This document shows, piece after piece, positions 9,892 to 50,300 of a stretch of DNA of 60,958 nucleotides. The translations under genes and the position numbers were made by a program. This DNA comes from an uncultured Cytophagia bacterium (GTDB lineage Bacteria > Zhuqueibacterota > Zhuqueibacteria > Thermofontimicrobiales > Thiofontviventaceae), in NCBI GenBank assembly GCA_964498785.1, contig CAZCJL010000030.1:1-60958 (forward strand). The letters run 5' to 3'. Under the pieces are notes generated by a model. It worked only from the letters and a program-made list of their open reading frames with translations. It searched no databases and was not told where the DNA came from. Every line of letters begins with the position of its first letter. Positions within the stretch are counted from its first letter, which is position 1.

Positions 9892-10079
9892 TCATTCAGG
9901 GTGCATAATGCTCCTTTCTACCATCTAAAATAGTGTACTTTGCTCACAGACATACAAAATGGATTGAGTGCACATTGGAGCTATGCTTTTATAAATTATC
10001 AAATTAATTCATGCAATATTTAACTGGCATCACTTTTGCGTTTGTGATCCACCTACTAATCATAATTATAATTTAATTT

Positions 10080-10529
10080 ATGAAACCTGTAAAAATCGAT
10101 CCGCCTTATTATCTGTATCTTTTTATTGGAATAATGGTCCTGCTTCATTTCGTTATTCCAGTCACGCATTTTATTCATTTCCCCCTGAATCTTTTCGGAC
10201 TGATTGTGTTAATACCAGGGATTGCTTTAAATTTATCCGCCGATAAAGCATTCAGAGTAAATAACACAACTGTAAAACCAATTTTGGAAACAAATAAACT
10301 GATTACCACCGGTATTTTTCACTTAACCAGAAATCCGATGTATTTAGGATTTGTATTGATTCTTTTGGGAATCGGAATATTAATGGGCACATTGACTCCA
10401 TTTTTAGCAGTGATTGTTTTCGCGTTTTTTATGGACGTTGTTTTTATTCGATATGAAGAACAAAAGCTGGAAAAAGCGTTTCAGGAAAAATGGGTGGCTT
10501 ACACGAAAAAAGTTCGACGATGGATATAA
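10080..10529 (+). CDS. Membrane methyltransferase of the isoprenylcysteine carboxyl methyltransferase / phospholipid methyltransferase family.
   Basis: Four to five transmembrane segments and the family motif ITTGIFHLTRNPMYLGFVLILLGIG (H..TrnPmYlG) followed by an EE..L...F region. Confidence 0.65.
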   Translation: MKPVKIDPPYYLYLFIGIMVLLHFVIPVTHFIHFPLNLFGLIVLIPGIALNLSADKAFRVNNTTVKPILETNKLITTGIFHLTRNPMYLGFVLILLGIGILMGTLTPFLAVIVFAFFMDVVFIRYEEQKLEKAFQEKWVAYTKKVRRWI

Positions 10530-10587
10530 ATTGAACATTTATACATCTTCAAATTATATCCCAAATCATTAAATCAGGAGAATTCGG

Positions 10588-10761
10588 ATGACTGATGAAA
10601 AAAAGAAAGATAATAAGAATGCCGAGACCGTGACAATTATCGGCCCGATCTGGTTCATTGGCTGGCTATTTACAATTGGATTTGCGAAACTTACATTCTG
10701 GAAAGCTGTTTTCTCATTAATCGTCTGGCCATATTATTTAGGTAGCGCATTGTCGCTCTGA
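10588..10761 (+). CDS. Small 57-aa membrane protein (two predicted transmembrane helices), absent from the ORF track.
   Basis: Shine-Dalgarno AATCAGGAGAAT 7 nt upstream of the ATG. MTDEKKKDNKNAETVTIIGPIWFIGWLFTIGFAKLTFWKAVFSLIVWPYYLGSALSL. It fills the gap between the methyltransferase and the cytochrome. Confidence 0.45.
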   Translation: MTDEKKKDNKNAETVTIIGPIWFIGWLFTIGFAKLTFWKAVFSLIVWPYYLGSALSL

Positions 10762-10812
10762 TCAATACTCATAAATCAAGATGAAACCTGAAATTCTAAA
10801 AGGAGGTATTGG

Positions 10813-11865
10813 ATGAAAATACTGGTAAAATCACTTACAGGAGCAGGATTAATTTTATTGTTGACAGGTATTATTTTTGCAATTCCATTGAACCAGGCGA
10901 TATGTCAGGAGTCTTTCTTTCATAAAAGTCTTCATTATACAACCGAAGGCATGCGTTTCTGGTATGAAGAAGAAGGCGGATTCAAAAACGTTACCGGAAT
11001 CCCGTATTCTGAATTAGATTGTCAAACCTGCCATACGGCAACATGCGATGTGTGCCATGCAGAAAAACAGGGCGAGAAATTCTCATTTTCGACTGCAAAG
11101 GCGCAACAATCAGAGACATGCCTGACATGCCACAGCCGGGAAGCGGCGACTTTCCGATTCGGTAAAAACATGGGGATGTTAGATGTTCACATTGCGAACG
11201 ACATGGTTTGCACAGATTGCCACAAAGCAGAAGATGTTCACGGGGACGGTACATTTCATCGCTCCATGCGTGACACAAATGCAGTGAAAACCGCGTGTAC
11301 CGATTGTCACGAGCCGGATACTGAACTACGCGCACATACTGTGCACAAAGGCAAACTAAATTGTAACGCCTGTCACGTGAAATATACAACAACCTGTATG
11401 AATTGCCATTTCGATAATTTTTTAGCATCTGGTTCCAGAAAGGGAAATTTCCAGGCGTTGCCGGCAAATGTCTTTCTCGTAAACTACAACGGCAAAGTAA
11501 CAACGGCAAATATGCAAACACTGGTGTACAAGGATGAAAAATTTATCGTTTATGCACCTTACTACACACATTCAGTGCAGGCTAATGCCCGGACCTGTGA
11601 TGAATGCCATGGCACCGATTTAGTGAAGAAAATTAAAAATGGTGAAAAAGTCGCGGCAATGGAATATCAAGACGGGAAGTTTGTTCCTCATAACGTTGCG
11701 GTTCCGGTTGTTCCCGACCAGCTCACATGGCCTTTTCTAACAAAAGAAGGTGAAAATTGGGTCGTTCTGAACAATGATAAAAAAGTGCATGTCCAAATGG
11801 CATGTTATGGAACAGCACTGACAGAACAACAGATTAAAAAATTAGCAATGCCATTTAAGAAGTGA
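10813..11865 (+). CDS. Membrane-anchored octaheme c-type cytochrome (8 CXXCH motifs).
   Basis: Shine-Dalgarno AAAGGAGG. N-terminal transmembrane helix. CQTCH, CDVCH, CLTCH, CTDCH, CTDCH, CNACH, CMNCH, CDECH. Confidence 0.85.
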   Translation: MKILVKSLTGAGLILLLTGIIFAIPLNQAICQESFFHKSLHYTTEGMRFWYEEEGGFKNVTGIPYSELDCQTCHTATCDVCHAEKQGEKFSFSTAKAQQSETCLTCHSREAATFRFGKNMGMLDVHIANDMVCTDCHKAEDVHGDGTFHRSMRDTNAVKTACTDCHEPDTELRAHTVHKGKLNCNACHVKYTTTCMNCHFDNFLASGSRKGNFQALPANVFLVNYNGKVTTANMQTLVYKDEKFIVYAPYYTHSVQANARTCDECHGTDLVKKIKNGEKVAAMEYQDGKFVPHNVAVPVVPDQLTWPFLTKEGENWVVLNNDKKVHVQMACYGTALTEQQIKKLAMPFKK

Positions 11866-12165
11866 AAGACAACATTAATGAAATTAGATTTTGTATAAAT
11901 CTACTTTCAATATGAATCAAAAATTTTGTTACATCCTCCTATTTAATTATTTTAATGCTTTAACCTCTTTTTATTCCACACGAATGGGGCATCGGTTTGT
12001 TATTTTCGGCAAGCCGGTGCTCCATTTTATTTTGATTGATTTTAACCCCATCCAAATTCAGACATATTAAAAAATTATTATTTTCTGCTTGTAATTTTCA
12101 ATAATTTTTTTTTCTTTAGCTATCAGACAATATCAATTATTTTTCATATAAAAAGGAGTATATAC

Positions 12166-13191
12166 ATGTCAAAAAAAATAGTGACTTTTGGTGAAATCAT
12201 GTTGCGCCTGGCTCCGTTCAATTACGAGCGAATCGTTCAGGCAGTGAATTTTCAGGCAACCTACGGCGGCGGCGAAGCGAATGTAGCAGTTTCACTGGCG
12301 CATTTTGGCGAGGATGTCTATTTTGTCACCAGGCTTCCCAAAAATCTGATCGGCGAGGCAGCGGAAAACCGTTTACGCGGATTTGGCGTTCATACAAATT
12401 ACATCCAGCGCGGCGGAGAGCGACTCGGCATCTACTTTCTGGAGCATGGCGCGTCCATCCGACCCTCGAAAGTGGTGTATGATCGTGCGCATTCAGCTAT
12501 CGCTCAAGTCACTATCAATACTTTTGATTGGGATGAAATTTTCAGAGGCAAAGACTGGTTCCATATTACCGGAATTACGCCGGCGCTGTCCCCCAACGCA
12601 GCAGAAGTTAGTCTGGAAGCTGTGGCAGCAGCCAAACGAAATGGCCTCAAAGTAAGCTGCGATCTCAACTACCGTAAAAAGCTCTGGACAAAGGCGGAAG
12701 CCAAAGCTACTATGACCAAACTGGTGGAATTCGTGGATGTAGTAATTGCGAACGAAGAGGACGCGGCAGATGTGTTTGGTATTGAAGCGGAAACCACTGA
12801 TGTGACCAGCGGCACGCTGGATATCGAAAAATATAAATCTGTAGCAAATCAACTGCAAAAATTATGTGATGCTGAGCTCGTCGCAATTACACTGCGGGAA
12901 AGCATTTCAGCGTCCGACAACAACTGGTCTGCAATGTTGTACGATGGATCTGAGTTTCTGGTGAGCCGAAAATATCATATCCACCTGATCGACCGTGTCG
13001 GCGGCGGAGATTCCTTTGGCGCCGGTTTGATTCATGGGCTTGTAAACGGCTGGGAAAAGCGAGATGCCCTGGAATTTGCCGTGGCAGCTTCCGGTATGAA
13101 ACAGACGATCCCCGGCGATATGAATCTGGTGAAAGAAGACGAAGTACTGGCAATCGCGAAAGGCGACACTTCCGGCCGCGTTCAAAGATAG
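12166..13191 (+). CDS. kdgK: 2-dehydro-3-deoxygluconokinase (PfkB family sugar kinase).
   Basis: Full-length similarity to KdgK sequences of the Thermotoga type: FGEIMLRL N-terminus, TYGGGEANVAVSLA, SCDLNYR.KLW, and the PfkB C-terminal signature DRVGGGDSFGAGLIHG. Shine-Dalgarno AAAAGGAG. Confidence 0.8.
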   Translation: MSKKIVTFGEIMLRLAPFNYERIVQAVNFQATYGGGEANVAVSLAHFGEDVYFVTRLPKNLIGEAAENRLRGFGVHTNYIQRGGERLGIYFLEHGASIRPSKVVYDRAHSAIAQVTINTFDWDEIFRGKDWFHITGITPALSPNAAEVSLEAVAAAKRNGLKVSCDLNYRKKLWTKAEAKATMTKLVEFVDVVIANEEDAADVFGIEAETTDVTSGTLDIEKYKSVANQLQKLCDAELVAITLRESISASDNNWSAMLYDGSEFLVSRKYHIHLIDRVGGGDSFGAGLIHGLVNGWEKRDALEFAVAASGMKQTIPGDMNLVKEDEVLAIAKGDTSGRVQR

Positions 13192-13198
13192 TCCATTG

Positions 13199-13231
13199 AA
13201 ACCTCTCTCAATCTTCCTTTGAGAGAGGTTC
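13199..13231. terminator. Bidirectional hairpin terminator between convergent genes.
   Basis: aacctctctca-atcttccttt-gagagaggtt, a perfect 10-11 bp stem, directly after the kdgK stop and abutting the stop of the minus-strand ORF 13232..13438. Confidence 0.55.
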
Positions 13232-13438
13232 TCACACCAAATCAAGTTCATTCAGAATCGCAATCGCTCCGTCCCCGGACATACGGATCGTCATCACATC
13301 TGAGTTTATTTCACAGTACGATTTCATTTTAAAGATTAAAATATATTGCAACCTCCGGATGCTGTACTCCTCAATCGTAATCCAATCAGGCGGCTTTTCA
13401 TAAACGAGTTTGGCGATGAATTCTGTTTTGGGGGGCAC
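13232..13438 (-). CDS. Hypothetical 68-aa protein (uncertain).
   Basis: ORF with a Shine-Dalgarno-like GAAGGA upstream, convergent with kdgK and sharing the hairpin terminator. No recognisable family. Confidence 0.3.
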   Translation of the reverse strand: MPPKTEFIAKLVYEKPPDWITIEEYSIRRLQYILIFKMKSYCEINSDVMTIRMSGDGAIAILNELDLV

Positions 13439-13803
13439 AATTATTGTCCTTCTTGAGATATTTATTCTATTTAAGGAGAATTCGATCTAAGCAATTATCT
13501 AACTACACGATTATTTTTAGCCACCATTCAACACGGACTAAAATGATTAGTTCGTAAAATTGGAGTACAATGCCTTTATGCATTGTACTTTGATGCGCAT
13601 AAACAGGGTATCCATGAACTCAGAAAAAGGTCATTCTTTTATATGACAAATTTATTAAATTTGGTGGTTCCTGGGGCTGTATTAAAAGTCCAGGATTTGT
13701 ATTTTGCGAAATTATGGGGTATAGCGATCCCATCGCTTGGAGCGATGGGATCGCTGGTCTATTAAAAAATCTTGCTTAAGAAAGATTAACTTTTGATACA
13801 GCC

Positions 13804-13935
13804 CCACGAACTACCCTTGCGAAGGTTTTTCAAAACGGGACAAGCTGTATATTGATACATATTCATGAATTATTCATATAGTGTGTTGTAGCGAAACCTT
13901 CTCAAGGGTTTTCCCGACGATATCAAAGTTCCTGG
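13804..13935. repeat. Copy A of a palindromic MITE/REP-like element family. Terminal inverted repeats CTACCCTTGCGAAGGTTT ... AAACCTTCTCAAGGGTT enclose an AT-rich core.
   Basis: About 94 percent identical to the reverse complement of 25420..25563. Shares termini and core with copy C (39186..39290) and the minimal copy D (47229..47266). The spurious ORFs 13881..14069 and 25285..25515 share CCSETFSRVFPTISKFL because they translate this repeat. Confidence 0.8.
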
Positions 13936-14139
13936 GCAGCCTCTTAAGAAAATTCACTCCCTTTTTAAGGAATAAAGTTCATTCTATTGAAACGCGTTTC
14001 TTATATCGACATCAGGCTATTCATGCTTTGTGTTGTCTTTTTACCATTCCCTCTTTTCAATTAATATAACCTTTCCCCCTTGACATTTCAACAAAAAACT
14101 ATTATAATTAATTCAACGAATGAAAATAAAGGATAATTT

Positions 14140-15117
14140 ATGAAATATCGAAATTTTGGCAAAACCGGCATACTGGTTTCGGAAATCGGATTTGGCGCGT
14201 GGGCAATTGGCGGTAGCTGGGGTCATCAGGATGATCGCGACTCGGTGAAGGCGTTGCACAAAGCCATCGATCTGGGTATGAATTTCATCGACACTGCCGC
14301 GGGGTACGGCGATGGCAGAAGTGAAAAAATCATCGCGCAGGTGTTGAAAGAGCGTAGTGATAAAAAAATCTATGTCTGCACCAAAACGCCGCCGTCACCG
14401 GGCGAATGGCCGCCATCTCCTTATGACAGTGCGGAAGCCCGGTATTCTGAATCATATCTCCGCAAAAATGTGGAGCAACGGCTCAAAAATCTGAATACTG
14501 ACTGTCTGGATGTCCTGTTACTTCACACCTGGACCCGGGCGTGGAACCATGATCCTGCGCCGCTGGAAATTCTAAAAATGTTAAAAGATGAGGGTAAAAT
14601 CCGCAATATCGGGATATCCACGCCGGAGCACGATCAGAACTGCGTTATCGATTTGATGCGCCGGGATTACCTGGATGCGGTGCAGGTCATTTACAATATT
14701 TTTGAACAGGAACCGGCCGCTGAATTGCTGCCTGTCGCCCTGAAAAAGCAGGTCGGTATCATCGTGCGGGTGGCGTTTGATGAAGGCGTTTTGACCGGAA
14801 AATACCCGGCAGACAGTGCGTTCCCGGAAGGTGATTTTCGTCAAAACTATTTTGCAGGGGACCGGCTGGAACGAGCCGTAAATCGCGCGAAAAAGATTGA
14901 ACAAGACATTGCAGATACCTGTTTATCGCTGCCAGAGGTCGCGTTGAAATTTGCCAAGTCTCATGACGCCGTAAGCACAGTAATTCCGGGCATCCGAAAT
15001 GTGCAGCAGGCAGAGGCGAATATCGCTGTCTCCGATCTGCCGGAACTTTCTGACGATCTAATAAATCGCCTGCACAAACATCATTGGCGCCGGGCGTTCT
15101 GGTATGCAGGGAAATAA
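14140..15117 (+). CDS. Aldo/keto reductase family oxidoreductase.
   Basis: MKYRNFGKTGILVSEIGFGAWAIGG...GMNFIDTAAGYGDGRSEKII and later conserved aldo-keto reductase blocks. Confidence 0.8.
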   Translation: MKYRNFGKTGILVSEIGFGAWAIGGSWGHQDDRDSVKALHKAIDLGMNFIDTAAGYGDGRSEKIIAQVLKERSDKKIYVCTKTPPSPGEWPPSPYDSAEARYSESYLRKNVEQRLKNLNTDCLDVLLLHTWTRAWNHDPAPLEILKMLKDEGKIRNIGISTPEHDQNCVIDLMRRDYLDAVQVIYNIFEQEPAAELLPVALKKQVGIIVRVAFDEGVLTGKYPADSAFPEGDFRQNYFAGDRLERAVNRAKKIEQDIADTCLSLPEVALKFAKSHDAVSTVIPGIRNVQQAEANIAVSDLPELSDDLINRLHKHHWRRAFWYAGK

Positions 15118-15120
15118 TAA

Positions 15121-15759
15121 CTATTTTTGCCCGATGAATTGAAAACCAACGGCGTCATGTCCGTTCATGGTCGTTAAATGAATTTCTTCAAAATGGATTT
15201 GCTGAAAGCGGGACGTCAGTTCGGTAATCCAGTTACGGTCATGATGCCGCAGCACAGCGCCTTCCGGCAATTTAAAGACGCCGTATTTTTGGTAAACATC
15301 TTTGATCTTAGCATAGCGCCGAATATTTCGCGCATCACGCTGGAGCAACAGATCGCTGATATAAATGAAAGCGCCCGGTTTTAATAACTGGTAAATTTCA
15401 TCAATGATTTTTTGCTGACCATCATCTGTGGGGACGCATGTGAGAACGGCAAATAAAATGACCAGATCGAAGGAAGTGCGTTTCTTAAATCGGAATTGAA
15501 CAAGCAGGTTCAGATGAGGATACATTCGCAATCCCCGTTTTATCATGCTTTCTGCCGGATCAATGCCAATCACATTGGAATAGCCGTGTTCCCGCAACGC
15601 GGCGCAGGTTCGGCCATAACCGCAGCCATAATCCAGAATCGCTGCATCTGTCGAGATGCATCTTTCCAATAAATCAATTTGCAGCGGATGGCTGAAATTT
15701 TTCTGTTCCGCGACCCGGTTCCAGTATTCCAACTGAACATTCAGCGATTTACTATCCAT
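15121..15759 (-). CDS. Class I SAM-dependent methyltransferase, translationally coupled to the upstream giant gene (8-nt overlap).
   Basis: SAM-binding motif I ILDYGCGYGRTCAALREHGYSNVIGIDPAESMI. Overlaps the stop of 15752..21436. Confidence 0.75.
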   Translation of the reverse strand: MDSKSLNVQLEYWNRVAEQKNFSHPLQIDLLERCISTDAAILDYGCGYGRTCAALREHGYSNVIGIDPAESMIKRGLRMYPHLNLLVQFRFKKRTSFDLVILFAVLTCVPTDDGQQKIIDEIYQLLKPGAFIYISDLLLQRDARNIRRYAKIKDVYQKYGVFKLPEGAVLRHHDRNWITELTSRFQQIHFEEIHLTTMNGHDAVGFQFIGQK

Positions 15760-18700
15760 TCTCCCCGCTCATTCGGGCGATTTTCAGATAATAGTAACGC
15801 AGCAGATCCTGCTCTTTTTTGCCGAGCACCTGTTCCTCAATGCGCAGGATACGCTCCACATCACGCAGCGCGCGCAATACGTCAATGGGGACTTCGCGCA
15901 TTTGGTGCGGGATTTGGGTGAGGTAATTGACCGCGTCGATCAGGAACTGTCGCATGTAATCATCCATAACCCCACGCAACAGACCGGCAATCTGACTGCC
16001 CAACCGATGCACTTCCCCCGGCTCGATGGTGAACGGAATGTCTGGCACGCCTTTTCGATCAGACAACGAATTAATCGCCAGCGCCAGTTCCACAAAACTC
16101 TCCACCTGCTGTTTGATCGGCTGGCGAATGAGTTCCCACATCTCCGCACGAATCGTACTGATTTCTACGGGGACCCGCATCAACTGCCGCATGGTTTCCG
16201 CCCATTGCGGCTCGATTTCCACGGAAATGTCTTTTCTCAAATTATCAAAATCAGTATTGAATAGATCTGGTTGCAGCAGGATCGACACATCCGGGCGGAA
16301 TGCCGGTAATACATCCGGGATAATGCGGTCGCCACTGAAAAATTCGGAAACATTCAATCCCTGTCGTCGCAACAGTTCTTTTTGCATCATCAGAATGAAA
16401 CCGGGAATGGAGTGATTATCTTCTTTTAAAATCAAAAATGCGGAATTTCCTGCCCGGAATGATGGTTCCATTTCCCTGATGTATGGCAGCGAAAGATCGT
16501 GATAAATACGCAGTGTATGCAGAATATCATGCACCGGCAGCAGCGGCAAAATGCGTTCGCTAATCACCATTAGTCCATCACTGTTCGCGAACTGCTTTTC
16601 CGCAAATTCACTGAGGGCACGGAACAGACCGGTAGTCAACTGATTCACACCTAAAATGACAGTCTGCGCCCGGTTATGCCCGATGGCCCGAAACAGGCTG
16701 CCATGTTTCAATAACGGCAGTGTTTGCGCTAATCGTTCAATGATCTGCTGCCCCTGATTCCCCGGGGTTTGTTGTCCCGGACGAACTGTCGGGCGATCGC
16801 GCAGCGTGGGAGTTGCCCTGGAAATAAAATAGGAGATCACATGAATCCCGACGACATCCTCTTCCCTGCCATAAAGAATGTGCTGATAATAGCGCGACAC
16901 CAGTTCGATAAACTCATTGAAAATCTCATCCCGGCGTCCCATGGTCAGCCGTTCCAATTCCTCCCATCCGCGGGACTGAAATCGCAGCCGGGTTTCCTGA
17001 AGTGGTTCATCGGCGCGAGACAGCTCGCCTTCATAGTATTTCTGGGCTTTTCCGACATGATACAGCAACCGTGCCCGTTCGTAAGCGGAAAGATGGCGCA
17101 GTTTTTCTGCAACATTGCTTTGAAACGTCCGGAAATCACCACCGACCAGCACACCGCGCAACGGGCTTTGCGCGAATTCAGTACTGCGGCGAGCGGAATC
17201 TTTTAGCACACCAGCGAGATTTGCCAGCGAATCCCGGGAATACAGCACGGATTTTCCGGCGTTTTCATCATAATAGCCACCCTGTCGCTGCATCGGCTCG
17301 CCGCTGCCCAATTTGATCCGCACCTTGCCAACCAGTCCCCGTTCCGCCAGCCAGCGGATCGACCGGTGTTTTGCCTCGCGGTACAACATTGCGCCAGCGG
17401 GTTGACTCACCTGCTGGCTTAAATCTGAGCCAGCGAAAAATAATTCACACACCATTTCCTCAAAGCGCTCGGCAGAATTCTGGGTCAATCGCTGACTCTG
17501 TCCCGTATATTCCCAGATGCGATCCAGATAGGATTCGAGATTCCGAATGGTTTTGCCGTCTTCGAATAACGGGATCAAACTAACCGCCGGAATAACAGCT
17601 TCCGGATGTTCTCGAGTAATTTCCTCCCACCGTGAGCGCATTTTTCGATCCAGCATAATTAGCGCTTCGGGATCAGTGGACATGCTGACCTGCAGTCCCA
17701 TCACCATTCCCGGTGTGCCGTATTTCCCGGCAATCTCATTGATTTCTACAATATTATGCACCGTGGTATCGATTGCGAATTGGTCCTGCGCCAGAATCAT
17801 TTTTTGATGAATGCGCGGGGTCAACATAAACCGCCGCAACAGGCTTCTGAAAAATCCGGCATGCAGCGCGATATCCGGATGATGCAGGTTGCGCTCGATT
17901 TTCGGCAACAATGCAAATAATGTTTTGCGCAACCGCTTATTCAATGAAAAATAATATTCCAGATTTTCCCGTCGTTGCACGCGCAACCGAAGCATTTTTC
18001 GTTCCAGACTGTCATTGTGCTGCCAAAGTGCAGTCAGCGGATCTCGGGCCAAATGCAGTTTCATTCCCACTCTTCTCAATAATCCAATATGCAAATCGAA
18101 CGGCAACACCCGCTGATAGCGTTTCTCCAATTGATTGGTGAGGTAAGTAATTTCATTCAGCAATTTTCGGAATTGTACAATTCTGTTTTCCAGCGTCTCG
18201 AGATCATTGAATAATTCAGGGTCAAGTTTTATGGATTGATCCACCCGCAGCAATGTTTTTAAGAATTCTGCTTGCAAATGCACGTTTTCCACAACAACCG
18301 CAGCCACCAACCGGTGTCCTTGTCCCGATGGACGAGAGCTGCCATCCCAATCGCCCCAGAAAGAGATCAAAGATTTTAGAGTGACGTCATTATGCCAGTG
18401 CGCCCATTCTTCAGCCTCAATAATCGAGTGTAAATCCAGTACCAGCTCGTCCGCTTCCTCAATAGAATTGATATGCACGTTCATGCCCAGAAATTCATCT
18501 GTTAGCTCATTTGCAAGTGCATGAATCGTTTCCCGTGGAATATCAAGGCCATAGATGAAATTTTCCAGTATTTTGTCAATGATTAAATCGACTTTCAGCG
18601 CGTACATTTGCGTGGGATGGACCGTCCGGTCGAACAATCGTTTTCGAAACGTGACAGATCGTTCTTCAAGGGATTCTTTGTGCAGCTCTTTTTCCAGAAT

Positions 18701-21436
18701 GTGAATTAATTTTGTCCGTTGCGAACCGTTCACTTCATTTATAATCATCTCCGCCAATTGAATTCGATCGCGATGTTTTTGTCTGAAAACCAGAAATCGC
18801 TGTGGCAAATAATCCGCATTGAACTGACGCATCATTTTTGGGATATTAAAATGCCTGGCAACCGGCTTTAGCTTTTTTGATAACAGAACACCAGCTTCGG
18901 AGGCAGTACGTTTCAGGAATTCATCAAAAACAATCGCGTACTCCGAAAATAAGCCCGTCGTTTTGAATTGCGCCGGCGTAAGCTCTCTGCGAGTATAGTT
19001 AAGGGATTCTTCAGCGATCAGCCGGTTCAGATCGATCAGCACGCGCCGGGTTTTCTGTCGCAGAATGCCGGCGTCATCCACACCACCAAGTGTGAGACGG
19101 AATGAGTTTCTGCCGATTTCATAACCCTTCGCTGTTCTGGCAAATGTAGACAAAGGAATCAAGCCAATCCCCTGCAACGCCAGTTTGGAAGCCAGCCAGT
19201 CCAGTGAAATACCTGTTGGCAATTTCCGGATGATCATATTGGGATACATCGCTCCCTGCGGTCTGCGGATTTCGATTTGATACGGATTGCGGTCCGACGG
19301 CAAATTGGCGCATGCTATTTCCAACGCTTGCATGCGTTTCTCAAAAATCCGGTTGCGCCAGGTCCAAAACGTCGCGATCTTTTCATAACTGTTTCGATAA
19401 AAAAGATAGGAAAGCAGCGTTGCCATCAAATTCGGACGGATCAGTCTATTCAATTCGGAGAATTGGTTTTTAAGACCCGCATGCGGGATTTCCGCAACAG
19501 CCATGCGTGCACCGGCAAAACAATCGGTTTTAGACAGCGAATGCACTGTAATTCCATACTGCGCCAGCTCCCGTCTTATTTGGCCTTTTACCACCATATC
19601 ACTAATGATTTGCCGAACCGATTTTGGTCCGCTCAAATTGTGAGCCGGCGCGACATTTTGATATGCCAGATCATCGATAACAAACACACGCTGTTCCAGT
19701 AGCCATTTTATTAATCTCTTCACATCGTTTTCACCAAACACATAGCCGCTGGCATTATGCGGATTATTCAGCACGACTGCGCCATGATCGCGCCAACCCG
19801 GATCATCCTCTACTTTACTCCGGACGGCATTGATAATCCCGTCCACATCCAATGACAAATCGTCATTTAGCGAAATTGCAATGACACGCGGGAAACAGTG
19901 CTCATACGTCCAGCTCATATCCGGTGTGATTACTTCATCGATCCCGCAATGAAAACCGAGCAAACTGAGCGCTGTTCGCGCTGAGCCGCTCACCACAAAG
20001 CAATCTCGTTGTGAATACTCCGGATGATGTTTCAGAAAGGCATTTAAAAAAGCCTGTTCTAAATTGGCGTGCCACTCCGAATCATTTAAATGAGTGAAAA
20101 ATTTGGCTATAATTTCAAACGGCGATAATCCTGTGAACGGGTCAAACATGCGCGCTTTTTCAGGCAGATAACTTTCGAGTGTACGATACACATCGCTACT
20201 GCGATTTAACACCGGCCTCACGTGAGATGTTGCTTGTGCGGCATGGTTTTCAACAATAGCACAAAGACGCCGTACAATCCGGTTCACCTGGCGATTTTGT
20301 GGAAGCATGAGGTTAGCGTCAGAATTTTCCGGGAAAATATCAATCACATCCGCAAAGCTGTTCGGTTCGTCCTGTTTCGTGTTGAGTTTTTGATCCAGCA
20401 AAAATGTGAACAGTTCCACCTCTGCCGCTGCTGGAGTTCCTTTTAATTGAAAATGAACAGTCTCGAAAATTTTTAAGAATTCGGAATTCCCGGTCATGAA
20501 TGAAATTGATAGCGCGGAAAAACGCGCATCGATTGCTGATGGTGAAATAATCCGAATCACGCGATTTAACAGACCGGCTTCCCGCGCCAGCGACAGGTGA
20601 TTTGGGGCATCGTTGGTTTCAATAAACATAATCGGATGTTTTAAACAGAGCCGGCGGAGTTCACGACGAACTTCTTCACAGGGAATATCGCCCAGAATCA
20701 AAAATACGGGCTGCGAAGAATTCTGTTGAAAGAATGATCCCAGCGCCGGTAAAACAGACTGATCAGTGTCTGGCAATGAATGAAATATCAGTGACGAATA
20801 CTGTCGCAAATGCTCTGGTATCTTCACTCCTACCAAAAAAATGTGCGCCGGCAGATCGAGCAGATAGTGTGAAAGCGAATGAAAAACTATCCGCAAATCT
20901 TCCCCCAAACCGCCATTGGAAAAAATAATTTCCCGGCAGCCTGTTTCCGTACCCGGATCGTAATCCAGTGGTTCATATTGATGTCGGGTGAGCCATTCAC
21001 GAATGAGTACTGCCAGTTGATTAGGATTTTTCTTATTGAATCCGCCACGGGGCATATAAGCAGTACTGTTTTCAATCGCCCGAGTAATCAATTGAGGGAT
21101 GTCACCGCGTTGATTCGAATTATAATCCCAAAAATAATTTGACTGACCTTCCCCGCCAGAATCCCGGATGTTCAACCCCAACACGATGCAACTGTACATA
21201 TCACTTAACCGGCGATCCTGGATCGGATTCCCGATGTGAAAATTAACACGTTCGTCCGGCTTCACCGGAGATGATGCGGTCGCTTCGCTAATTTCCGAAA
21301 CCTTTGCCGCTTTCAGCGGACGCAACCGAAACGAGGATTGCAAGCGATGTTGTGATTCAAATTTATTCATATTTTCTATGGAGTTATGGCATGGCAGCGA
21401 CTGCCTCGCTGCATGCCGCCGTTTTTCAGCCGGCAA
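15752..21436 (-). CDS. Giant (~1.9 kaa) cytoplasmic protein of unknown function. It has a degenerate PLP-aminotransferase (class I/II fold)-like domain, then an intact-looking aminotransferase-fold domain, then ~1100 aa of unassigned mostly helical sequence. The start is uncertain: TTG 21436 or ATG 21370.
   Basis: Domain 2 has NNPHNASGYVF (compare NPxNPTG) and SLSKTDCFAGARMA (compare SxSKxxGxxGxRxG, the PLP lysine). Domain 1 (NFHIGNPIQD...YMPRGG...LIREWL...IIFSNGGLGEDLRIVFHSL...IISPSAIDARFSALS) keeps the fold pattern but has SPSA where SxSK is expected, so it lacks the lysine. No Walker A motif or HEXXH. Confidence 0.6.
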   Translation of the reverse strand: MPAEKRRHAARQSLPCHNSIENMNKFESQHRLQSSFRLRPLKAAKVSEISEATASSPVKPDERVNFHIGNPIQDRRLSDMYSCIVLGLNIRDSGGEGQSNYFWDYNSNQRGDIPQLITRAIENSTAYMPRGGFNKKNPNQLAVLIREWLTRHQYEPLDYDPGTETGCREIIFSNGGLGEDLRIVFHSLSHYLLDLPAHIFLVGVKIPEHLRQYSSLIFHSLPDTDQSVLPALGSFFQQNSSQPVFLILGDIPCEEVRRELRRLCLKHPIMFIETNDAPNHLSLAREAGLLNRVIRIISPSAIDARFSALSISFMTGNSEFLKIFETVHFQLKGTPAAAEVELFTFLLDQKLNTKQDEPNSFADVIDIFPENSDANLMLPQNRQVNRIVRRLCAIVENHAAQATSHVRPVLNRSSDVYRTLESYLPEKARMFDPFTGLSPFEIIAKFFTHLNDSEWHANLEQAFLNAFLKHHPEYSQRDCFVVSGSARTALSLLGFHCGIDEVITPDMSWTYEHCFPRVIAISLNDDLSLDVDGIINAVRSKVEDDPGWRDHGAVVLNNPHNASGYVFGENDVKRLIKWLLEQRVFVIDDLAYQNVAPAHNLSGPKSVRQIISDMVVKGQIRRELAQYGITVHSLSKTDCFAGARMAVAEIPHAGLKNQFSELNRLIRPNLMATLLSYLFYRNSYEKIATFWTWRNRIFEKRMQALEIACANLPSDRNPYQIEIRRPQGAMYPNMIIRKLPTGISLDWLASKLALQGIGLIPLSTFARTAKGYEIGRNSFRLTLGGVDDAGILRQKTRRVLIDLNRLIAEESLNYTRRELTPAQFKTTGLFSEYAIVFDEFLKRTASEAGVLLSKKLKPVARHFNIPKMMRQFNADYLPQRFLVFRQKHRDRIQLAEMIINEVNGSQRTKLIHILEKELHKESLEERSVTFRKRLFDRTVHPTQMYALKVDLIIDKILENFIYGLDIPRETIHALANELTDEFLGMNVHINSIEEADELVLDLHSIIEAEEWAHWHNDVTLKSLISFWGDWDGSSRPSGQGHRLVAAVVVENVHLQAEFLKTLLRVDQSIKLDPELFNDLETLENRIVQFRKLLNEITYLTNQLEKRYQRVLPFDLHIGLLRRVGMKLHLARDPLTALWQHNDSLERKMLRLRVQRRENLEYYFSLNKRLRKTLFALLPKIERNLHHPDIALHAGFFRSLLRRFMLTPRIHQKMILAQDQFAIDTTVHNIVEINEIAGKYGTPGMVMGLQVSMSTDPEALIMLDRKMRSRWEEITREHPEAVIPAVSLIPLFEDGKTIRNLESYLDRIWEYTGQSQRLTQNSAERFEEMVCELFFAGSDLSQQVSQPAGAMLYREAKHRSIRWLAERGLVGKVRIKLGSGEPMQRQGGYYDENAGKSVLYSRDSLANLAGVLKDSARRSTEFAQSPLRGVLVGGDFRTFQSNVAEKLRHLSAYERARLLYHVGKAQKYYEGELSRADEPLQETRLRFQSRGWEELERLTMGRRDEIFNEFIELVSRYYQHILYGREEDVVGIHVISYFISRATPTLRDRPTVRPGQQTPGNQGQQIIERLAQTLPLLKHGSLFRAIGHNRAQTVILGVNQLTTGLFRALSEFAEKQFANSDGLMVISERILPLLPVHDILHTLRIYHDLSLPYIREMEPSFRAGNSAFLILKEDNHSIPGFILMMQKELLRRQGLNVSEFFSGDRIIPDVLPAFRPDVSILLQPDLFNTDFDNLRKDISVEIEPQWAETMRQLMRVPVEISTIRAEMWELIRQPIKQQVESFVELALAINSLSDRKGVPDIPFTIEPGEVHRLGSQIAGLLRGVMDDYMRQFLIDAVNYLTQIPHQMREVPIDVLRALRDVERILRIEEQVLGKKEQDLLRYYYLKIARMSGENG

Positions 21437-21441
21437 TAATT

Positions 21442-22419
21442 TTATTCTACGTCCTGAACTTCTTTTTTCTCAATCGACTGGATCATATTCTGGAGCATTT
21501 TTTTCAACAGCCCCATAAATTGAGAGCCTTCTGCCAGGTCTTTTGATGAAAGTGACACTACCGTGCGCGCGTTGCGCAAATTCTGGCTCGCTTCTGCTAG
21601 TTGCGCGACTTGAGGCGTTAAAATAAGCAATTCGGGATGATCAACTAACATTTGTATTTCTTTTTGATCCATTTCCAATTGCATTTTTTTTACTTTCAGC
21701 TCCTCATCCACTCGATGAAGGGCCAAAACAGCTTCCTGTTCTTCCGCTGTTTTCTTCAATGCAATTTTCTTCATTTCAAGATCATGCTCATAGTTTGCAA
21801 TCTGTTCATCTGCCTCGGATTTAGCGCGGGCTGCGGCGACACGTGCGTTTTGACTGTATATTTCCGTCTGCTCCAGAATGCGCGCAGCTTCCTGCTGCCG
21901 GATCGCCTCAGATATCTTTTTATCCGCTGGTTCCACGGATTGAACGTTCACTGCCATCACTTCCAATCCCAATTTCTCTTCTGAATCCTTCAGGCGACTA
22001 TCCACGTGCTTTGCCATCTTATCGGATGCTAATTCCTCGATGGCATACTTTTCGGTAAACTCCCGGACAAATGAATTTGTCACCACTTCCAGTTCTCGCG
22101 TTGCCTGTGCGACCGCATCTTTGTTCCAGCCACCGACACGGATCAGCGCGGATAAATGTTTCAGCGAGGCCGCAACCGTCACTGCCAGTTTCACCTGAAC
22201 CGCGATCCGTCCCTTTGCATCCGCCTCGATGGTGTGCACTGTTGAATGTACTTTTGCCAAAATTGTTAAACTAAAATGCCGCGGATAAATCCGGGCCCTG
22301 CGCCGGCGAACCTGACCATCTGATTCGTATAAAACAATGTAATCCGGTCGTGACAATCGATATTCAAACAGAATTAGCGCCAAAATAATGGCTGCAATGA
22401 TGGCGATTGTAAGCACCAT
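21442..22419 (-). CDS. SPFH/band-7 (flotillin-like) membrane protein with a C-terminal coiled coil. The ORF track start is 22434; ATG 22419 has the better ribosome-binding site.
   Basis: N-terminal transmembrane helix VLTIAIIAAIILALILF, an SPFH-like core, then an EA-rich heptad region (EAIRQQEAARILEQTEIYSQNARVAAARAKSEADEQIANYEHDLEMKKIALKKTAEEQEA). GGAGGG lies 6 nt before ATG 22419. The stop is 5 nt before the giant gene. Confidence 0.7.
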   Translation of the reverse strand: MVLTIAIIAAIILALILFEYRLSRPDYIVLYESDGQVRRRRARIYPRHFSLTILAKVHSTVHTIEADAKGRIAVQVKLAVTVAASLKHLSALIRVGGWNKDAVAQATRELEVVTNSFVREFTEKYAIEELASDKMAKHVDSRLKDSEEKLGLEVMAVNVQSVEPADKKISEAIRQQEAARILEQTEIYSQNARVAAARAKSEADEQIANYEHDLEMKKIALKKTAEEQEAVLALHRVDEELKVKKMQLEMDQKEIQMLVDHPELLILTPQVAQLAEASQNLRNARTVVSLSSKDLAEGSQFMGLLKKMLQNMIQSIEKKEVQDVE

Positions 22420-22568
22420 ATTTCCCTCCGTCATCTGATGTTTTATGTGTTACTGTTTTCTCTCAGTGCAACGTCATTCATCATCGCACGATTCGAACAG
22501 ATAAATTCTATTAATATACGTAATTTTTCTGTCAATCAAAAATAAAAATTAAATTTTCATTTTGGAAT

Positions 22569-23330
22569 TCAGGTACTTCGCTTTTCCGCGACCACTAACA
22601 TTTCAAAATCATCAGTGGTCAGTTTTTTATCGCGGCTGAAAATTCCTGTGTCGCAGCCGTAAATCCCGATATTCATGCAGTCGAGTGACTTTAAATACCA
22701 TGAGATTTCCGATGGCGCAAAATAGCGCTCGTTGCAATCAATTTTCTTTTGTTCGCCGGCGTCGTCCACAATTTCAATGGTTGAAAAATCTCTGAACGTC
22801 AGCAGATCGAAATTATTTTCAAGAGAAGCAACTTCTGAATTTTGATTTATGAAATCCTTCACAGAATGATAGAGCGGATAGAGCACATTCAAACACGTGA
22901 AAATAAATTTACTGCCGGATTTCAACGACTGCACGGCGTTTTGGAGAATCCTGAAATTCATCTCATCCGTTTCCATAAGTGAAAAAGCGCCTTCGCACAG
23001 CATTATTGCCATATCGAATTGACTTTCAAAGCTAAACTGCCGCGCATCTTTTTGAAGAAATTCTACGGTAACACAAGCTTTTTCAGCTTTTTCACGCGCC
23101 CGTTTTAATTGCGATTCCGACAGATCAATGCCAGTTACTGAATATCCCCGACAAGCCAGTTCAATTGCATGACGACCAGTACCGCAGCCAATATCAAGAA
23201 TACGTTTTGTTTTATCGAATCCGATCTCCTGTTCGATGAAATCTACTTCAGCGATCGTACCCTGTGTAAACACTTCCTGATCGTACTTTTCCGCATAATT
23301 TTCAAACAGTTTTTCGTACCATTGTGACAT
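22569..23330 (-). CDS. Class I SAM-dependent methyltransferase.
   Basis: ILDIGCGTGRHAIELACRGYSVTGIDLSESQL motif I. Shine-Dalgarno AAGGA. Confidence 0.75.
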   Translation of the reverse strand: MSQWYEKLFENYAEKYDQEVFTQGTIAEVDFIEQEIGFDKTKRILDIGCGTGRHAIELACRGYSVTGIDLSESQLKRAREKAEKACVTVEFLQKDARQFSFESQFDMAIMLCEGAFSLMETDEMNFRILQNAVQSLKSGSKFIFTCLNVLYPLYHSVKDFINQNSEVASLENNFDLLTFRDFSTIEIVDDAGEQKKIDCNERYFAPSEISWYLKSLDCMNIGIYGCDTGIFSRDKKLTTDDFEMLVVAEKRST

Positions 23331-23376
23331 TTATGTGATCCTTTTGTTAGCCACACCTGTCTATCCAATACACAAA

Positions 23377-23407
23377 GATTTCCGAAGTCTCGGAGACTTC
23401 GGAAATC
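23377..23407 (-). terminator. Strong 13-bp hairpin downstream of the TPR-like gene (minus strand).
   Basis: gatttccgaagtc-tcgga-gacttcggaaatc, a perfect stem, followed on the minus strand by UUUGUGUAUU. Confidence 0.5.
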
Positions 23408-23467
23408 TGCTACCCGTTAGCTTTTGCTGCTTTTACAGTTAAAATCCCCACCAGAATCCGCGCCAAC

Positions 23468-25148: not shown

Positions 25149-25419
25149 AAAGTCGCCTCCATATTATTTAGAGTGGGACACGAATCATTGACATTTCATT
25201 TAATATAATCCTTTTCCTCTTAAAATCAAGTAAATACTCAACTGTGTGATAACTTTTATACTGAATTCAGGAAACGGTTTTTTTTCAAGCGGCATTTTGG
25301 GAAATTGTTATGAAGCGTTTGGCAGCAGGAAGGATTATACGCAGGTGAAGGCGCGCACGAAATTCCTTCACCTGAATGCCCTTGTTATTCTGAAGAGTTA
25401 GCATCCTTGAACAGCGGGT

Positions 25420-25563
25420 TACCAGCCTGTCCAGGAACTTTGATATCGTCGGGAAAACCCTTGAGAAGGTTTCGCTACAACACAATATATAGATAAATTC
25501 ATGAATATGTATCAATATACAGCTTGTCCCGTTTTGAAAAACCTTCGCAAGGGTAGTTCGTGG
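25420..25563. repeat. Copy B of the palindromic MITE/REP-like element, inverted relative to copy A.
   Basis: The reverse complement matches 13804..13935 with only a few central mismatches. Lies between the stop of the OMP gene and the zupT upstream region. Confidence 0.8.
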
Positions 25564-39185: not shown

Positions 39186-39290
39186 AACCCTTGCGAAGGT
39201 TTGTAGCCATACAATATATAGATAATTCATTGTAATTTTTTCAATATACAGACCAGTATATTTTTATAACCTTCGCAAGGGTAGTTCCGA
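39186..39290. repeat. Copy C of the palindromic MITE/REP-like element (about 105 bp).
   Basis: cccttgcgaaggttt ... acaatatatagataattcat ... aaccttcgcaagggtagttcc. Lies between the stop of 39369.. and the start of the SurA-like gene. Confidence 0.75.
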
Positions 39291-47344: not shown

Positions 47345-50300
47345 CTACTTCATCATTAACATTTTACTTGTTTTATTAAATGTCTGGGTTCTCATTTTGC
47401 AGAAATAAACGCCGCTCGATACTTTCATCCCCTGGTCGTTTGTTCCATCCCATTGGATGCTGTATGAACCTGCCGCTTTTTTGCCATCAACAAGCGTTCG
47501 TACTTTTTTGCCCAGAATATTGTAAACGTCAATTTTTACATCAGAGCTATGTGCTAACTGGTACTTCAGTGTTGTTTCCGGATTAAACGGGTTGGGATAA
47601 TTTTCGAACAGTTCATAGGTCAACGGAGCTTTGCCGCTATTTTCAGCTACAGATGTCGGACCGCCAAAAACTTCAAGAAAGCCCCAGGTGCTGGGTCGTT
47701 TCCAGCCTTCTTCGATTACATCGCCGCTGCCACCGAATGCCACTAATAAAGTACGGCTTTCATCTCCAAGAGACGGATCCATATCAGTCCCGTTGATGGT
47801 CATTGGCATCATCGCGCCATCTTTGGTCGTCCAATCCTCGCCAACTTCGACCAGAGAATCAAGCTCCATTCTGGCTTCGATAATGTAGCCATCGCCGGTG
47901 AATTTCTGGAATACTGTGGTTTCTACACCAGGGATTGTGGTTTCTGTCATTCCGTTGATCTGTGTCGTACCCCAGGCAGTAAAACTGATACGCCAATCAC
48001 CGGTTCCTTCCTCAGACACAGAGCCCTTCGGATGTTGAGCCGATAATGCTTTGGCGTCGTAAAATCCCATATAAAATTCAAGAGCGTCGCCTTCCCATGC
48101 CTGTCCCGGAGGATCGCGAAGGTCATCGTCTGTCACATCTCCGGAGATATAAAGGTAGTTATCATCTATTACGAAGGTAATATTAAAATTCAAGTCCGTT
48201 GATTCCAATGTCCATGTGTCGCCATAATCACCACTTGCTGTTTGCGGTTTAACCATGTGGGTTTTATAATTTTCGAATTCAGTATCCAGACCATCCAGAA
48301 CAAACGCATCCGCGAAATCAGCGACATATTGTGCCTTGGCAGTAACACTGGTCGGGAGTGTGATCGGACCGACTTTGCACTCGGGCACTAATTCAGTTTC
48401 AACTCCCTGTGCAGAGGTCGCTGTAACTGCATAATACAAAGCCGCCTCACCAGCGTCTCTCGTCCATGGACGATGTCCCCAGTTTTGATGTCCATGCGGG
48501 ATTTTCGATGCAATTCGCATCACGCCTTCTGCATTTACATCATTAATCGGACTTTTGCTGACATATACATTATAAGTTTCGGTGCCAACTGCGTTATCCA
48601 TCCATTGTAAATGAGTAAAAAAGTATGGAGTAACAACACCGGGGCCCACGATAGTATCCATTTCAGCGATAACGGCTGGAGATACGACTTCCCCTTGTGG
48701 TTGTGGAATACCGTAATACATCAGATTATCCCAGTAGACATTCCCAACCCAGGTTTGCGCTTCCTGGTAGGAAATTTGGCCGCCCACGGAAAGCGTTGCA
48801 GTCGGATCGACTTCACCGGCATCAACAAAAGAAACAACATCGTAAAACAAGGTATTCCATTCACCCCGCACCAAACTGGAATCGTCGATGAAATAAGCAT
48901 GTTCCGTCCAGGTCCAGCTCACGTGGTCGCGTGCAAAGATTGAGACTTGTGCTCCCAACGGAATATCTGTCGGTAAATACACATCCAGAGAAATAGTATG
49001 AGCATAGGTTTCTAATTCAGCGGAATAGATATTCGCGTTGCCTTTTTCAAATGCGCCTTTCTGTTCGGTACTGTTTGCAAAGTCATAACTGGTGTTCAAA
49101 ACACCTGCGCTGCGAGCAGTGGGATCTGCGCTCCATATCACACCGTTCAATCCATCGCCCCAGGCTTTGGCAAAATCATTTGTACCGGCCGCCTCGTTTT
49201 CAAAATCAGCCACCAGCCAATCCATACCTGTTTGGGTTCCCAGAAAGCTGATATTATCAAAATAGATGGTACCCGCCCAGGTGGAATCTTCATCCAGAAT
49301 ATTCCAGCCCTGGATTTGGATACCGACTTTGCCTAGTTTATTTGCTTCGAGGTCGAGACCATCGTCGGGAGCCAATCGGGATAATGCAACCATGTCCATA
49401 TTAATGGGGTACCAGGTTTCTTTTGGTATATCATACACATTATGAATGGGATATTGTCCCCAGACACCAGCCCAACTGGCGTTATCCTGTACCCAAAGTT
49501 CAAAATACAAATCATCAGGAGTATCTGCCGGTAACCAGACATAATAGGTTAAAATCTGATTGCCGTCCGGATCAAGCGTACCATCATGCTGAATAACGCC
49601 TTTTCTTCCCAGCGTACCATCGTACGTTACAGCGAGCACGCCATCCGAAACAGTGCTGGGATCTTCAATGCGCGAAACATCGGTTAACGATGGCCCCCAT
49701 CCGTTATCGCTCCAGTTCATCGCGCCTAATGCCGGGTCTTCAAAATCACTGACAGCAGAGGGATTAGCGCCGACCAGACTAAAATTATCAAAATATATGG
49801 TTCCGGCCCATGTTGTGTCGGCATCGTGTTCATTCCAGCCCTGAATTTGAATACCGATTTTTCCGATTTTATTCGCTTCGAGATCAAGATTATCGGCAAG
49901 ATCTAATCGCGATAATGCAACCATGTCCATATTGATGGGGAACCATGTTTCTTTGGGAATATCATATCCGTTATAAATCGGATATTTGCCCCATACACCG
50001 GCCCAACTAGCGTTGTCCTGTACCCACAGTTCCAGATTCAAGCTATCAGGAAAATCTGCCGGCAGCCAGACATAATACGTGAAAACCTGTGCGCCTTCAG
50101 GGTCAATCGTGCCATCATACTGAATGACGCCTTTTCTGCCCAGTGTGCCATCGTACGTAACGGCTAAAACGCCTTCCGATGCACTGCTGGGATCAGCAAC
50201 ACGTGACACATCAGTCAGCGAAGGTCCCCATGCGTTATCTACCCAGTTCATCGTTCCTAAAGCCGGATCTTCAAAATCTGCAATAACTTGCGATAGTAGC

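Follow-up and report, generated by a model that had tools for sequence, protein, structure and literature searches.

We analysed a 60,958-nucleotide (nt) stretch of DNA from an uncultured Cytophagia bacterium (Zhuqueibacterota in the GTDB taxonomy; contig CAZCJL010000030.1 of assembly GCA_964498785.1), hereafter referred to as the window, which encodes a giant protein next to an SPFH/Band-7 (flotillin-like) membrane protein. An earlier reading of the sequence letters (the original prediction) had placed these two genes in a candidate four-gene system together with two methyltransferases. Four co-directional open reading frames (ORFs) do lie on the minus strand as proposed, and Pfam agrees with the assignment of the two methyltransferases and of the SPFH protein. 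In the direction of transcription, they encode a class-I S-adenosylmethionine (SAM) methyltransferase (MT1; 253 residues, 22569..23330; Pfam Methyltransf_25 and related models), the SPFH protein (330 residues, 21442..22434; Pfam Band_7), the giant protein (a maximal ORF of 1,894 residues from a TTG codon, 15752..21436) and a second class-I SAM methyltransferase (MT2; 212 residues, 15121..15759; Pfam Methyltransf_23/11). Here we describe the domain organization of the giant protein, which appears to join two aminotransferase-fold domains to a cryptic phosphoenolpyruvate (PEP) carboxylase (PEPC)-like domain, and its conserved pairing with the SPFH gene.

The 8-nt overlap between the giant ORF and MT2, on which the original prediction had relied, is real. 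The 5-nt gap that it had seen between the SPFH stop codon and the giant ORF holds for the TTG start at 21436 and does not hold for the likelier start, an ATG at codon 23 (nt 21368–21370). Because the deposited gene call (P0001; 1,872 residues) and the N termini of homologues fit this ATG, the giant gene probably extends over 15752..21370 on the minus strand, and the spacer that separates it from the SPFH gene is most likely 71 nt long (21371..21441); in related loci, the gap is usually 5–60 nt. MT1 and the SPFH gene are 134 nt apart. No terminator-like hairpin lies between any of the four genes, the 71-nt spacer included. Just upstream of MT1, between a tetratricopeptide repeat (TPR) gene and MT1, the minus strand carries a strong hairpin with a 15-base pair (bp) stem (23376–23408), which is likely to be a terminator, or an attenuator-like structure that marks the start of the local transcription unit. 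To judge from this layout, co-transcription of the four genes is plausible in this contig. Residue numbers below refer to the 1,894-residue ORF, unless P0001 numbering is stated.

The giant protein (~210 kDa) has no predicted transmembrane segment (maximum hydropathy, 1.27) and is therefore predicted to be soluble, and it lacks a Walker A motif, as had been noted. Its public annotation reads only 'aminotransferase'. Among the Pfam models, searched with the whole protein and with five segments of it at E values up to 10, only Aminotran_1_2 matches (residues 478–789), and NCBIfam adds nothing more specific. Similarly, phmmer and full-length profile searches against the PDB matched the giant protein to aminotransferases only. 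We found more than 700 homologues of ~1,870 residues each, with 44–59% identity; when relatives were searched in one genome per species, 354 species encoded one. The arrangement described in the original prediction, in which an apparently inactive aminotransferase-like domain is followed by an intact one, is conserved in this family, and we found no description of the giant architecture in the literature searched. Moreover, every full-length representative carries the PEPC-like domain described below, from about residue 780–860 to the C terminus, so the fusion of aminotransferase and PEPC-like domains appears to be obligatory.

Judging from its motifs and predicted structure, the middle domain (residues ~430–825; 18962..20149, minus strand) is a complete class-I aminotransferase dependent on pyridoxal 5′-phosphate (PLP). 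Its match to the class-I/II aminotransferase family PF00155 (Aminotran_1_2) reaches 53.5–58.3 bits against a cut-off of 19.7, and encompasses the SLSKT motif at residues 633–637 and the NNPHNASG motif at residues 557–564, both of which had been recognized from the sequence. The PLP lysine K636 of SLSKT (nt 19529–19531, minus strand) is invariant across the family. The domain further displays the motifs IDDLAYQ, SLSKT...GAR and FRLTLGG, and the invariant PLP-site residues (P0001 numbering) comprise N535/N539 (the asparagine pair of NNPHN), D567 and Y570 (both in IDDLxY), S613-K614, R622 (the arginine following SLSK) and R758 (the carboxylate-binding arginine of FRLTLGG). A profile search matched the kynurenine aminotransferase BNA3 (7e-9). 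An AlphaFold model of residues 23–830 (predicted local distance difference test (pLDDT), 86.4; predicted template modelling score (pTM), 0.85) yielded, in Foldseek, the Thermotoga and Thermus aspartate aminotransferases (AspATs) 2gb3 and 1bjw, 1-aminocyclopropane-1-carboxylate (ACC) synthase, LysN and kynurenine aminotransferase as its best matches, at E ~1e-15 and with template modelling (TM) scores, normalized by target, of 0.65–0.70; each match spans one domain's worth of the query.

The N-terminal domain (residues 23–352; 20381..21370, minus strand) is probably a lysine-less copy of the aminotransferase fold that acts as a pseudo-subunit, as suggested by the model. Its ~330 residues match neither a Pfam family nor a PDB sequence. 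In the AlphaFold model, seven strands and their helices follow each other in the order and with the spacing of the large domain of a true aminotransferase. Profile–profile alignment to the true aminotransferase domain (hhalign) extends colinearly over 238 columns and is weak (E = 0.013, probability 3%); it places ISPSA opposite SLSKT, LGDIPCEE opposite NNPHNASG and FIETND opposite VIDDLAY. In this alignment, an alanine (ISPSA; consensus, LTPxA) occupies the position of the Schiff-base lysine, and the NNPxN and IDD motifs are absent. The lysine-less aminotransferase-like domain of the original prediction is, on this evidence, probable. Since the domain has invariant motifs of its own (NFHIGNP, YxPRGG, ExNxxxNHxSxxREA and KGxP), it is under strong selection. 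We infer that it could take the place of the partner with which aminotransferase subunits obligatorily dimerize and contribute to the one live active site, which would leave one working PLP site per chain.

The C-terminal part (residues 831–1894; 15755..18946, minus strand) had been described as ~1,100 residues of unassigned helical sequence. It indeed has no Pfam or NCBIfam match over ~1,060 residues; what had been missed is a cryptic PEPC-fold domain. The invariant columns of the family form a colinear series of motifs that resemble PEPC signatures, and hhalign against the single sequence of Escherichia coli PEPC recovers these motifs in order (E = 0.05, probability 1%). The decisive evidence is structural: an AlphaFold model of residues 831–1894 (pLDDT, 83.6; pTM, 0.85) retrieved PEPCs as all of its top 50 Foldseek matches (best E = 2e-10). 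Among 1.84 billion representatives, the family profile matched only 244 and reached no canonical PEPC, and two sequence bridges close this distance. First, one of these matches, a stand-alone protein of 1,038 residues (P0255; E = 3.7e-24), resembles the family and also passes the archaeal-type PEPC model PEPcase_2/PF14010 (32.8 bits; cut-off, 25). Second, a core profile that includes P0255 and the related P0265 has the archaeal-type PEPC 3odm as its top PDB match (E = 0.006); phmmer with P0255 found no match in the PDB. These two bridges confirm the homology to PEPC. On the combined evidence of sequence and model, the last 1,060 residues form a highly divergent relative of PEPC, nearest to the archaeal type, which is predicted to work alike and falls outside the curated families as they are now drawn. 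PEP mutase/isocitrate lyase-type chemistry, as in a phosphonate route, was set aside, as PEPCs topped both fold searches instead.

P0255 (locus L082, 6892–10008) and P0265 are stand-alone, divergent PEPC-like proteins of 940–1,040 residues that share the motifs HP[ST]Q, W.D.DGA.R, PLFE, AGSD.SK and GTGE..FRQ.G with the giant family, and on this basis may represent a further unrecognized PEPC-like clade. The P0255 gene sits among housekeeping genes, with neither an SPFH nor an aminotransferase gene as a neighbour.

The alignment places a set of PEPC active-site residues in the giant protein, each of them invariant in the 80 sequences in which conservation was counted. E. coli Glu506 and Asp543, in the PLFE and GYSDS motifs, are reportedly the divalent-metal ligands (Kai et al.), and correspond to E1292 (PLFE) and D1338 (AGSD), which align with PLVED and ARSD of 3odm, respectively. 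His138 and Arg587 of the E. coli enzyme are catalytically important (PMC11832675), and their counterparts are H940 (TVHPTQ; TAHPTE in E. coli) and R1384 in the GSGEPMQRQGG loop. Arg699 corresponds to R1548, Arg713 to R1583 (RAIxH) and Asn881/Gly883 to N1893/G1894 at the very end of the chain, where the family terminates in G-E-N-G. Three residues of the E. coli type are replaced: His579 by L/M1376, Arg581 by S1378 and Lys546 by Q1341. In the alignment with 3odm (PLVED, ARSDTAMS and LGCGSLPFRG), the same three positions are non-canonical, and because this archaeal-type enzyme deviates there too, the replacements are no argument against activity; His579, Arg581 and Lys546 mark the bacterial/plant type rather than PEPC activity as such. 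The GSGEPMQRQGG loop is of low confidence in the AlphaFold model, consistent with mobility.

We next examined which neighbours the giant gene keeps, using the best 80 loci from the 354-species search. According to their record titles, these loci belong to the Ignavibacteriota/Melioribacter, Calditrichota, KSB1, Kryptoniota, Acidobacteriota (Bryobacterales and Solibacteraceae) and Chloroflexota (Anaerolineae). At 75 of the 80 loci, an SPFH homologue (43–54% identity) directly precedes the giant gene and shares its strand. In four of the five other loci, the contig itself ends where the giant gene begins or within the 5′ end of this gene, so that SPFH is present in 75 of the 76 loci where an upstream region exists. 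The sole true absence is a Bryobacteraceae metagenome-assembled genome (locus L070; giant gene, 9956–15571), in which tblastn detected no SPFH gene within 10 kb on each side. The methyltransferase neighbours are not kept: homologues of MT2 occur at none of the 80 loci and homologues of MT1 at one, and the TPR and ZIP transporter genes that neighbour the block here have no homologue at any. An all-against-all clustering of neighbours gave no specific partner besides SPFH; further candidates were rejected, because the recurrent clusters were promiscuous families (PAS histidine kinases, secreted proteins, ECF sigma factors and ABC ATPases). Pairwise divergence of the SPFH and giant proteins is strongly correlated (r = 0.94 over 2,701 pairs), a value that none of 500 permutations reached. 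Given the contrast between SPFH and the methyltransferases in these counts, the conserved unit consists of two genes, SPFH and giant; the methyltransferases and the flanking repeats described below are traits of this contig only, and the methyltransferases are chance neighbours.

Some relatives carry additional genes of a related kind. At four loci, a stand-alone aminotransferase of 405 residues lies directly 3′ of the giant gene (L020, 15771–16988; L024, 15817–17034; L026, 9839–11056; L033, 5725–6942), followed in three of them by a protein of ~551 residues. Two loci among the closest relatives (L083, 12223–16126; L011, 5165–9141) have, after the giant gene, a second pair that consists of a ~475-residue flotillin (Band_7 and Flot) and then a ~787-residue AspAT-like fusion protein with a P-loop-like motif (GSAGTGK) in its unrelated C-terminal region. 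Here, too, a flotillin gene adjoins an aminotransferase fusion; the window has no such second pair. The 787-residue protein was considered as a paralogue of the N-terminal half of the giant protein and rejected, being an ordinary AspAT with an unrelated domain.

After its N-terminal helix and SPFH domain, the SPFH protein continues with a charged helical stretch and carries a C-terminal motif that is strongly conserved (PELLxLxPQxARLAEASQxLxNAxT). A transmembrane helix is predicted at residues 5–24 (Kyte–Doolittle hydropathy, 2.85), and because arginines follow it, the positive-inside rule suggests that the bulk of the protein is cytoplasmic. SPFH proteins form membrane-attached oligomeric assemblies. 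The 330-residue protein scores 27.6 bits with Band_7 (cut-off, 23.6), and 20 of 28 SPFH orthologues pass or approach this model (best, 3.8e-11); a family profile searched against the PDB found no solved structure by sequence. The modest Band_7 score and the lack of a PDB sequence match indicate that the subfamily is divergent. No NfeD gene occurs among the conserved neighbours of the SPFH–giant loci. The 330-residue translation from the first ATG has no exact copy in the protein collection, where the giant protein and both methyltransferases are present; the deposited SPFH call probably uses another start codon.

Recognition of the PEPC-fold domain shifts the functional reading from the original notion of a modification or biosynthetic machine towards an enzyme of the PEP/oxaloacetate/amino acid node. 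We propose that the giant protein is an SPFH-tethered fusion enzyme that would make aspartate from PEP and bicarbonate via oxaloacetate. In this scheme, the PEPC-like domain would convert PEP and bicarbonate to oxaloacetate, and the fused aminotransferase would at once turn this unstable product into aspartate, with glutamate as the probable amino donor, so that PEP carbon could be channelled to the aspartate family without release of oxaloacetate. The SPFH protein, probably oligomeric like other SPFH proteins, would tether or corral the giant enzyme at the inner face of the membrane. The invariance of the catalytic residues, the presence of AspATs among the nearest structures, the obligatory fusion and the SPFH linkage support this proposal, which we give a probability of roughly 0.4. 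Direct transamination of PEPC-derived oxaloacetate to aspartate is an established step in C4 plants (PMC3586729).

Several observations weigh against this proposal. Neither PF00311 (PEPcase) nor PF14010 (PEPcase_2) matches the whole giant protein or its segments at E values up to 10, and no NCBIfam PEPC model does. Identity to known PEPCs is 12–17%, and archaeal-type PEPC is only half as large as this domain; with the failure of the curated models, these values make it quite possible that the reaction has changed. In the glycine-rich loop, GSGEPMQRQGG takes the place of GRGGSIGRGG, although it resembles LGCGSLPFRG of the archaeal type, and no counterpart of E. coli R396 could be placed. In the structure comparison, the aminotransferase domain does not favour AspAT above ACC synthase, LysN or kynurenine aminotransferase, which makes the identity of the amino acid formed conjectural. 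An anaplerotic enzyme has no evident need of a membrane scaffold, the correlation between SPFH and giant divergence reflects shared species history in part, and one relative (L083) has an ATP-dependent PEP carboxykinase gene nearby, two genes upstream of its giant gene, which is without counterpart in the window.

As the main rival explanation, the same architecture and SPFH pairing could serve a repurposed PEPC fold, which would catalyse another Mg/Mn-dependent enolate reaction on a 2-oxo acid or enol-phosphate. Oxaloacetate decarboxylation, or another carboxylation or lyase step, could be fed or drained by the aminotransferase, for example in a catabolic route from aspartate through oxaloacetate to pyruvate or PEP in amino acid-fermenting bacteria. 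The low identity and ~540 extra residues speak for such a change, whereas the PEPC-specific residues (the HPT histidine, the loop arginine, the RP and RAI arginines and the C-terminal Asn-Gly) are invariant and the positions that deviate do so in archaeal-type PEPC as well; we consider repurposing somewhat unlikely.

Alternatively, the giant protein might be mainly a regulator or scaffold instead of an enzyme that carries flux, the domains of which sense PEP, aspartate or another amino acid and control an SPFH microdomain, or the reverse. One of its three domains is already pseudo-enzyme-like, metabolic enzymes are not usually paired so strictly with a membrane scaffold, and the aspartate/malate allosteric inhibitor site of PEPC includes the loop arginine and the C-terminal asparagine (Asn964 in Flaveria; PMC3586729), both of which are kept here. 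Across several phyla, however, the aminotransferase and the PEPC-like domain both keep complete, invariant catalytic sets, which argues for catalysis, as pseudo-enzymes tend to lose residues of this kind. A mainly regulatory role seems improbable.

The four genes might instead form one operon, as originally proposed, whose products act together in modification, biosynthesis or defence; the flanking repeats might have mobilized it. The co-directional arrangement, the absence of intervening terminators, the hairpin before MT1 and the 8-nt overlap are compatible with such a unit, inverted repeats do flank the block, and the methyltransferases weakly match the generic methyltransferase part of a PADLOC-DB 2.0 model. 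However, the methyltransferases are not conserved alongside SPFH and giant, and these have no further conserved partner. No PADLOC-DB 2.0 model matches the giant or SPFH protein, and the neighbourhoods consist of ordinary housekeeping genes that vary between loci. The repeats, moreover, also enclose unrelated genes for an aldo-keto reductase, the TPR protein and a ZIP transporter. A four-gene system, whether for defence or biosynthesis, is accordingly very improbable. An artefact, whether chimeric assembly or a sequencing error that fused separate frames into the giant ORF, would have only the origin of this ORF in a single metagenomic contig in its favour and can be practically dismissed, because more than 100 independent homologues (~1,870 residues) from different samples and phyla align over 98–99% of the length of the ORF with identical domain order.

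A bolder extension of the aspartate-forming fusion enzyme would have the SPFH protein assemble, on the cytoplasmic side of the membrane, into a ring or cage by which oligomers of the megaenzyme are specifically held or enclosed, as a membrane-attached metabolic nanocompartment that would couple bicarbonate capture or oxaloacetate channelling to the membrane; the giant protein would then also represent a fifth class of PEPC, and its partner the first bacterial SPFH protein with a client in central metabolism. Taken as a whole, this picture is speculative and rather unlikely.

The component folds are all known; what appears to be new is the three-domain architecture, together with the extreme divergence of the PEPC-like domain and its dedicated SPFH gene partner. 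The archaeal-type PEPCs (PepcA/atPEPC; 3ODM; PF14010) are stand-alone proteins of ~525–560 residues, whereas the domain described here has ~1,060 residues with large helical additions, shares 17% identity with them, stays below the PF14010 threshold and is in every case preceded, in the same chain, by two aminotransferase-fold domains. From the bacterial/plant PEPCs (E. coli Ppc 1JQN/1FIY, maize and Flaveria C4; PF00311), it differs by an identity of ~12%, the missing PF00311 match, the replacement of H579, R581 and K546, and a glycine-rich loop that is not glycine-rich. The middle domain resembles the class-I aminotransferases (2GB3, 1BJW, LysN and BNA3) in its PF00155 match, its complete PLP site and its TM scores; these enzymes are usually homodimers of ~400-residue chains, whereas here a lysine-less domain precedes it and the PEPC-like domain follows it in one chain. 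Like the SPFH systems HflK/C–FtsH, SPFH–NfeD and FloA/FloT, the SPFH protein combines a membrane anchor, an SPFH domain and a helical C terminus with one linked partner gene; unlike in HflK/C–FtsH and SPFH–NfeD, this partner is a large, soluble, metabolic-type enzyme rather than a protease or NfeD. C4 photosynthesis couples PEPC and aspartate aminotransferase in the same two reactions that we propose here (PMC3586729), with two separate soluble enzymes in the plants in place of one polypeptide with a membrane scaffold in heterotrophic bacteria.

If active, the giant protein would represent a very divergent, aminotransferase-fused type of PEPC that is invisible to standard annotation and lies beyond the four PEPC types recognized in a 2020 review of the PEP–pyruvate–oxaloacetate node, in which, as far as a term search of its text extends, no fused form appears (PMC8100219). 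The literature searched held no link between SPFH proteins and either aminotransferases or PEPC, and the Ignavibacterium genome paper, consulted for PEPC, contained nothing relevant. At least 354 species are concerned, and in these, if the enzyme is active, metabolic reconstructions would miss a CO2-fixing anaplerotic or aspartate-forming step. The host lineages are abundant in sediments, soils and bioreactors. The SPFH pairing offers a testable client for a bacterial flotillin-like scaffold, a group of which the clients and functions are, to our knowledge, largely unknown. The tandem of a dead and a live aminotransferase domain would in turn exemplify a homodimer turned into a single chain.

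The repeats that flank the block are two copies of a ~144-nt intergenic element, copy A at 13804–13947 and copy B at 25419–25563, close to where the original prediction had placed a palindromic repeat. Both intergenic copies exist, copy B matching copy A in reverse-complement orientation (~95% identical); the full element is no palindrome. Each element has internal complementary arms, as in a miniature inverted-repeat transposable element (MITE) or a repetitive extragenic palindromic (REP) element. Between the copies, which are separated by 11.5 kb, lie the genes for the aldo-keto reductase, MT2, giant, SPFH, MT1, TPR and ZIP proteins, and this block contains no transposase. A partial third copy, a 41-nt piece at 39211–39251, is 78% identical. 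The window also contains two pairs of 300-nt direct repeats, one within 1694–2662 (86% identical, spaced by 669 nt) and one within 49248–50078 (80% identical, spaced by 531 nt), which are probably internal repeats within genes.

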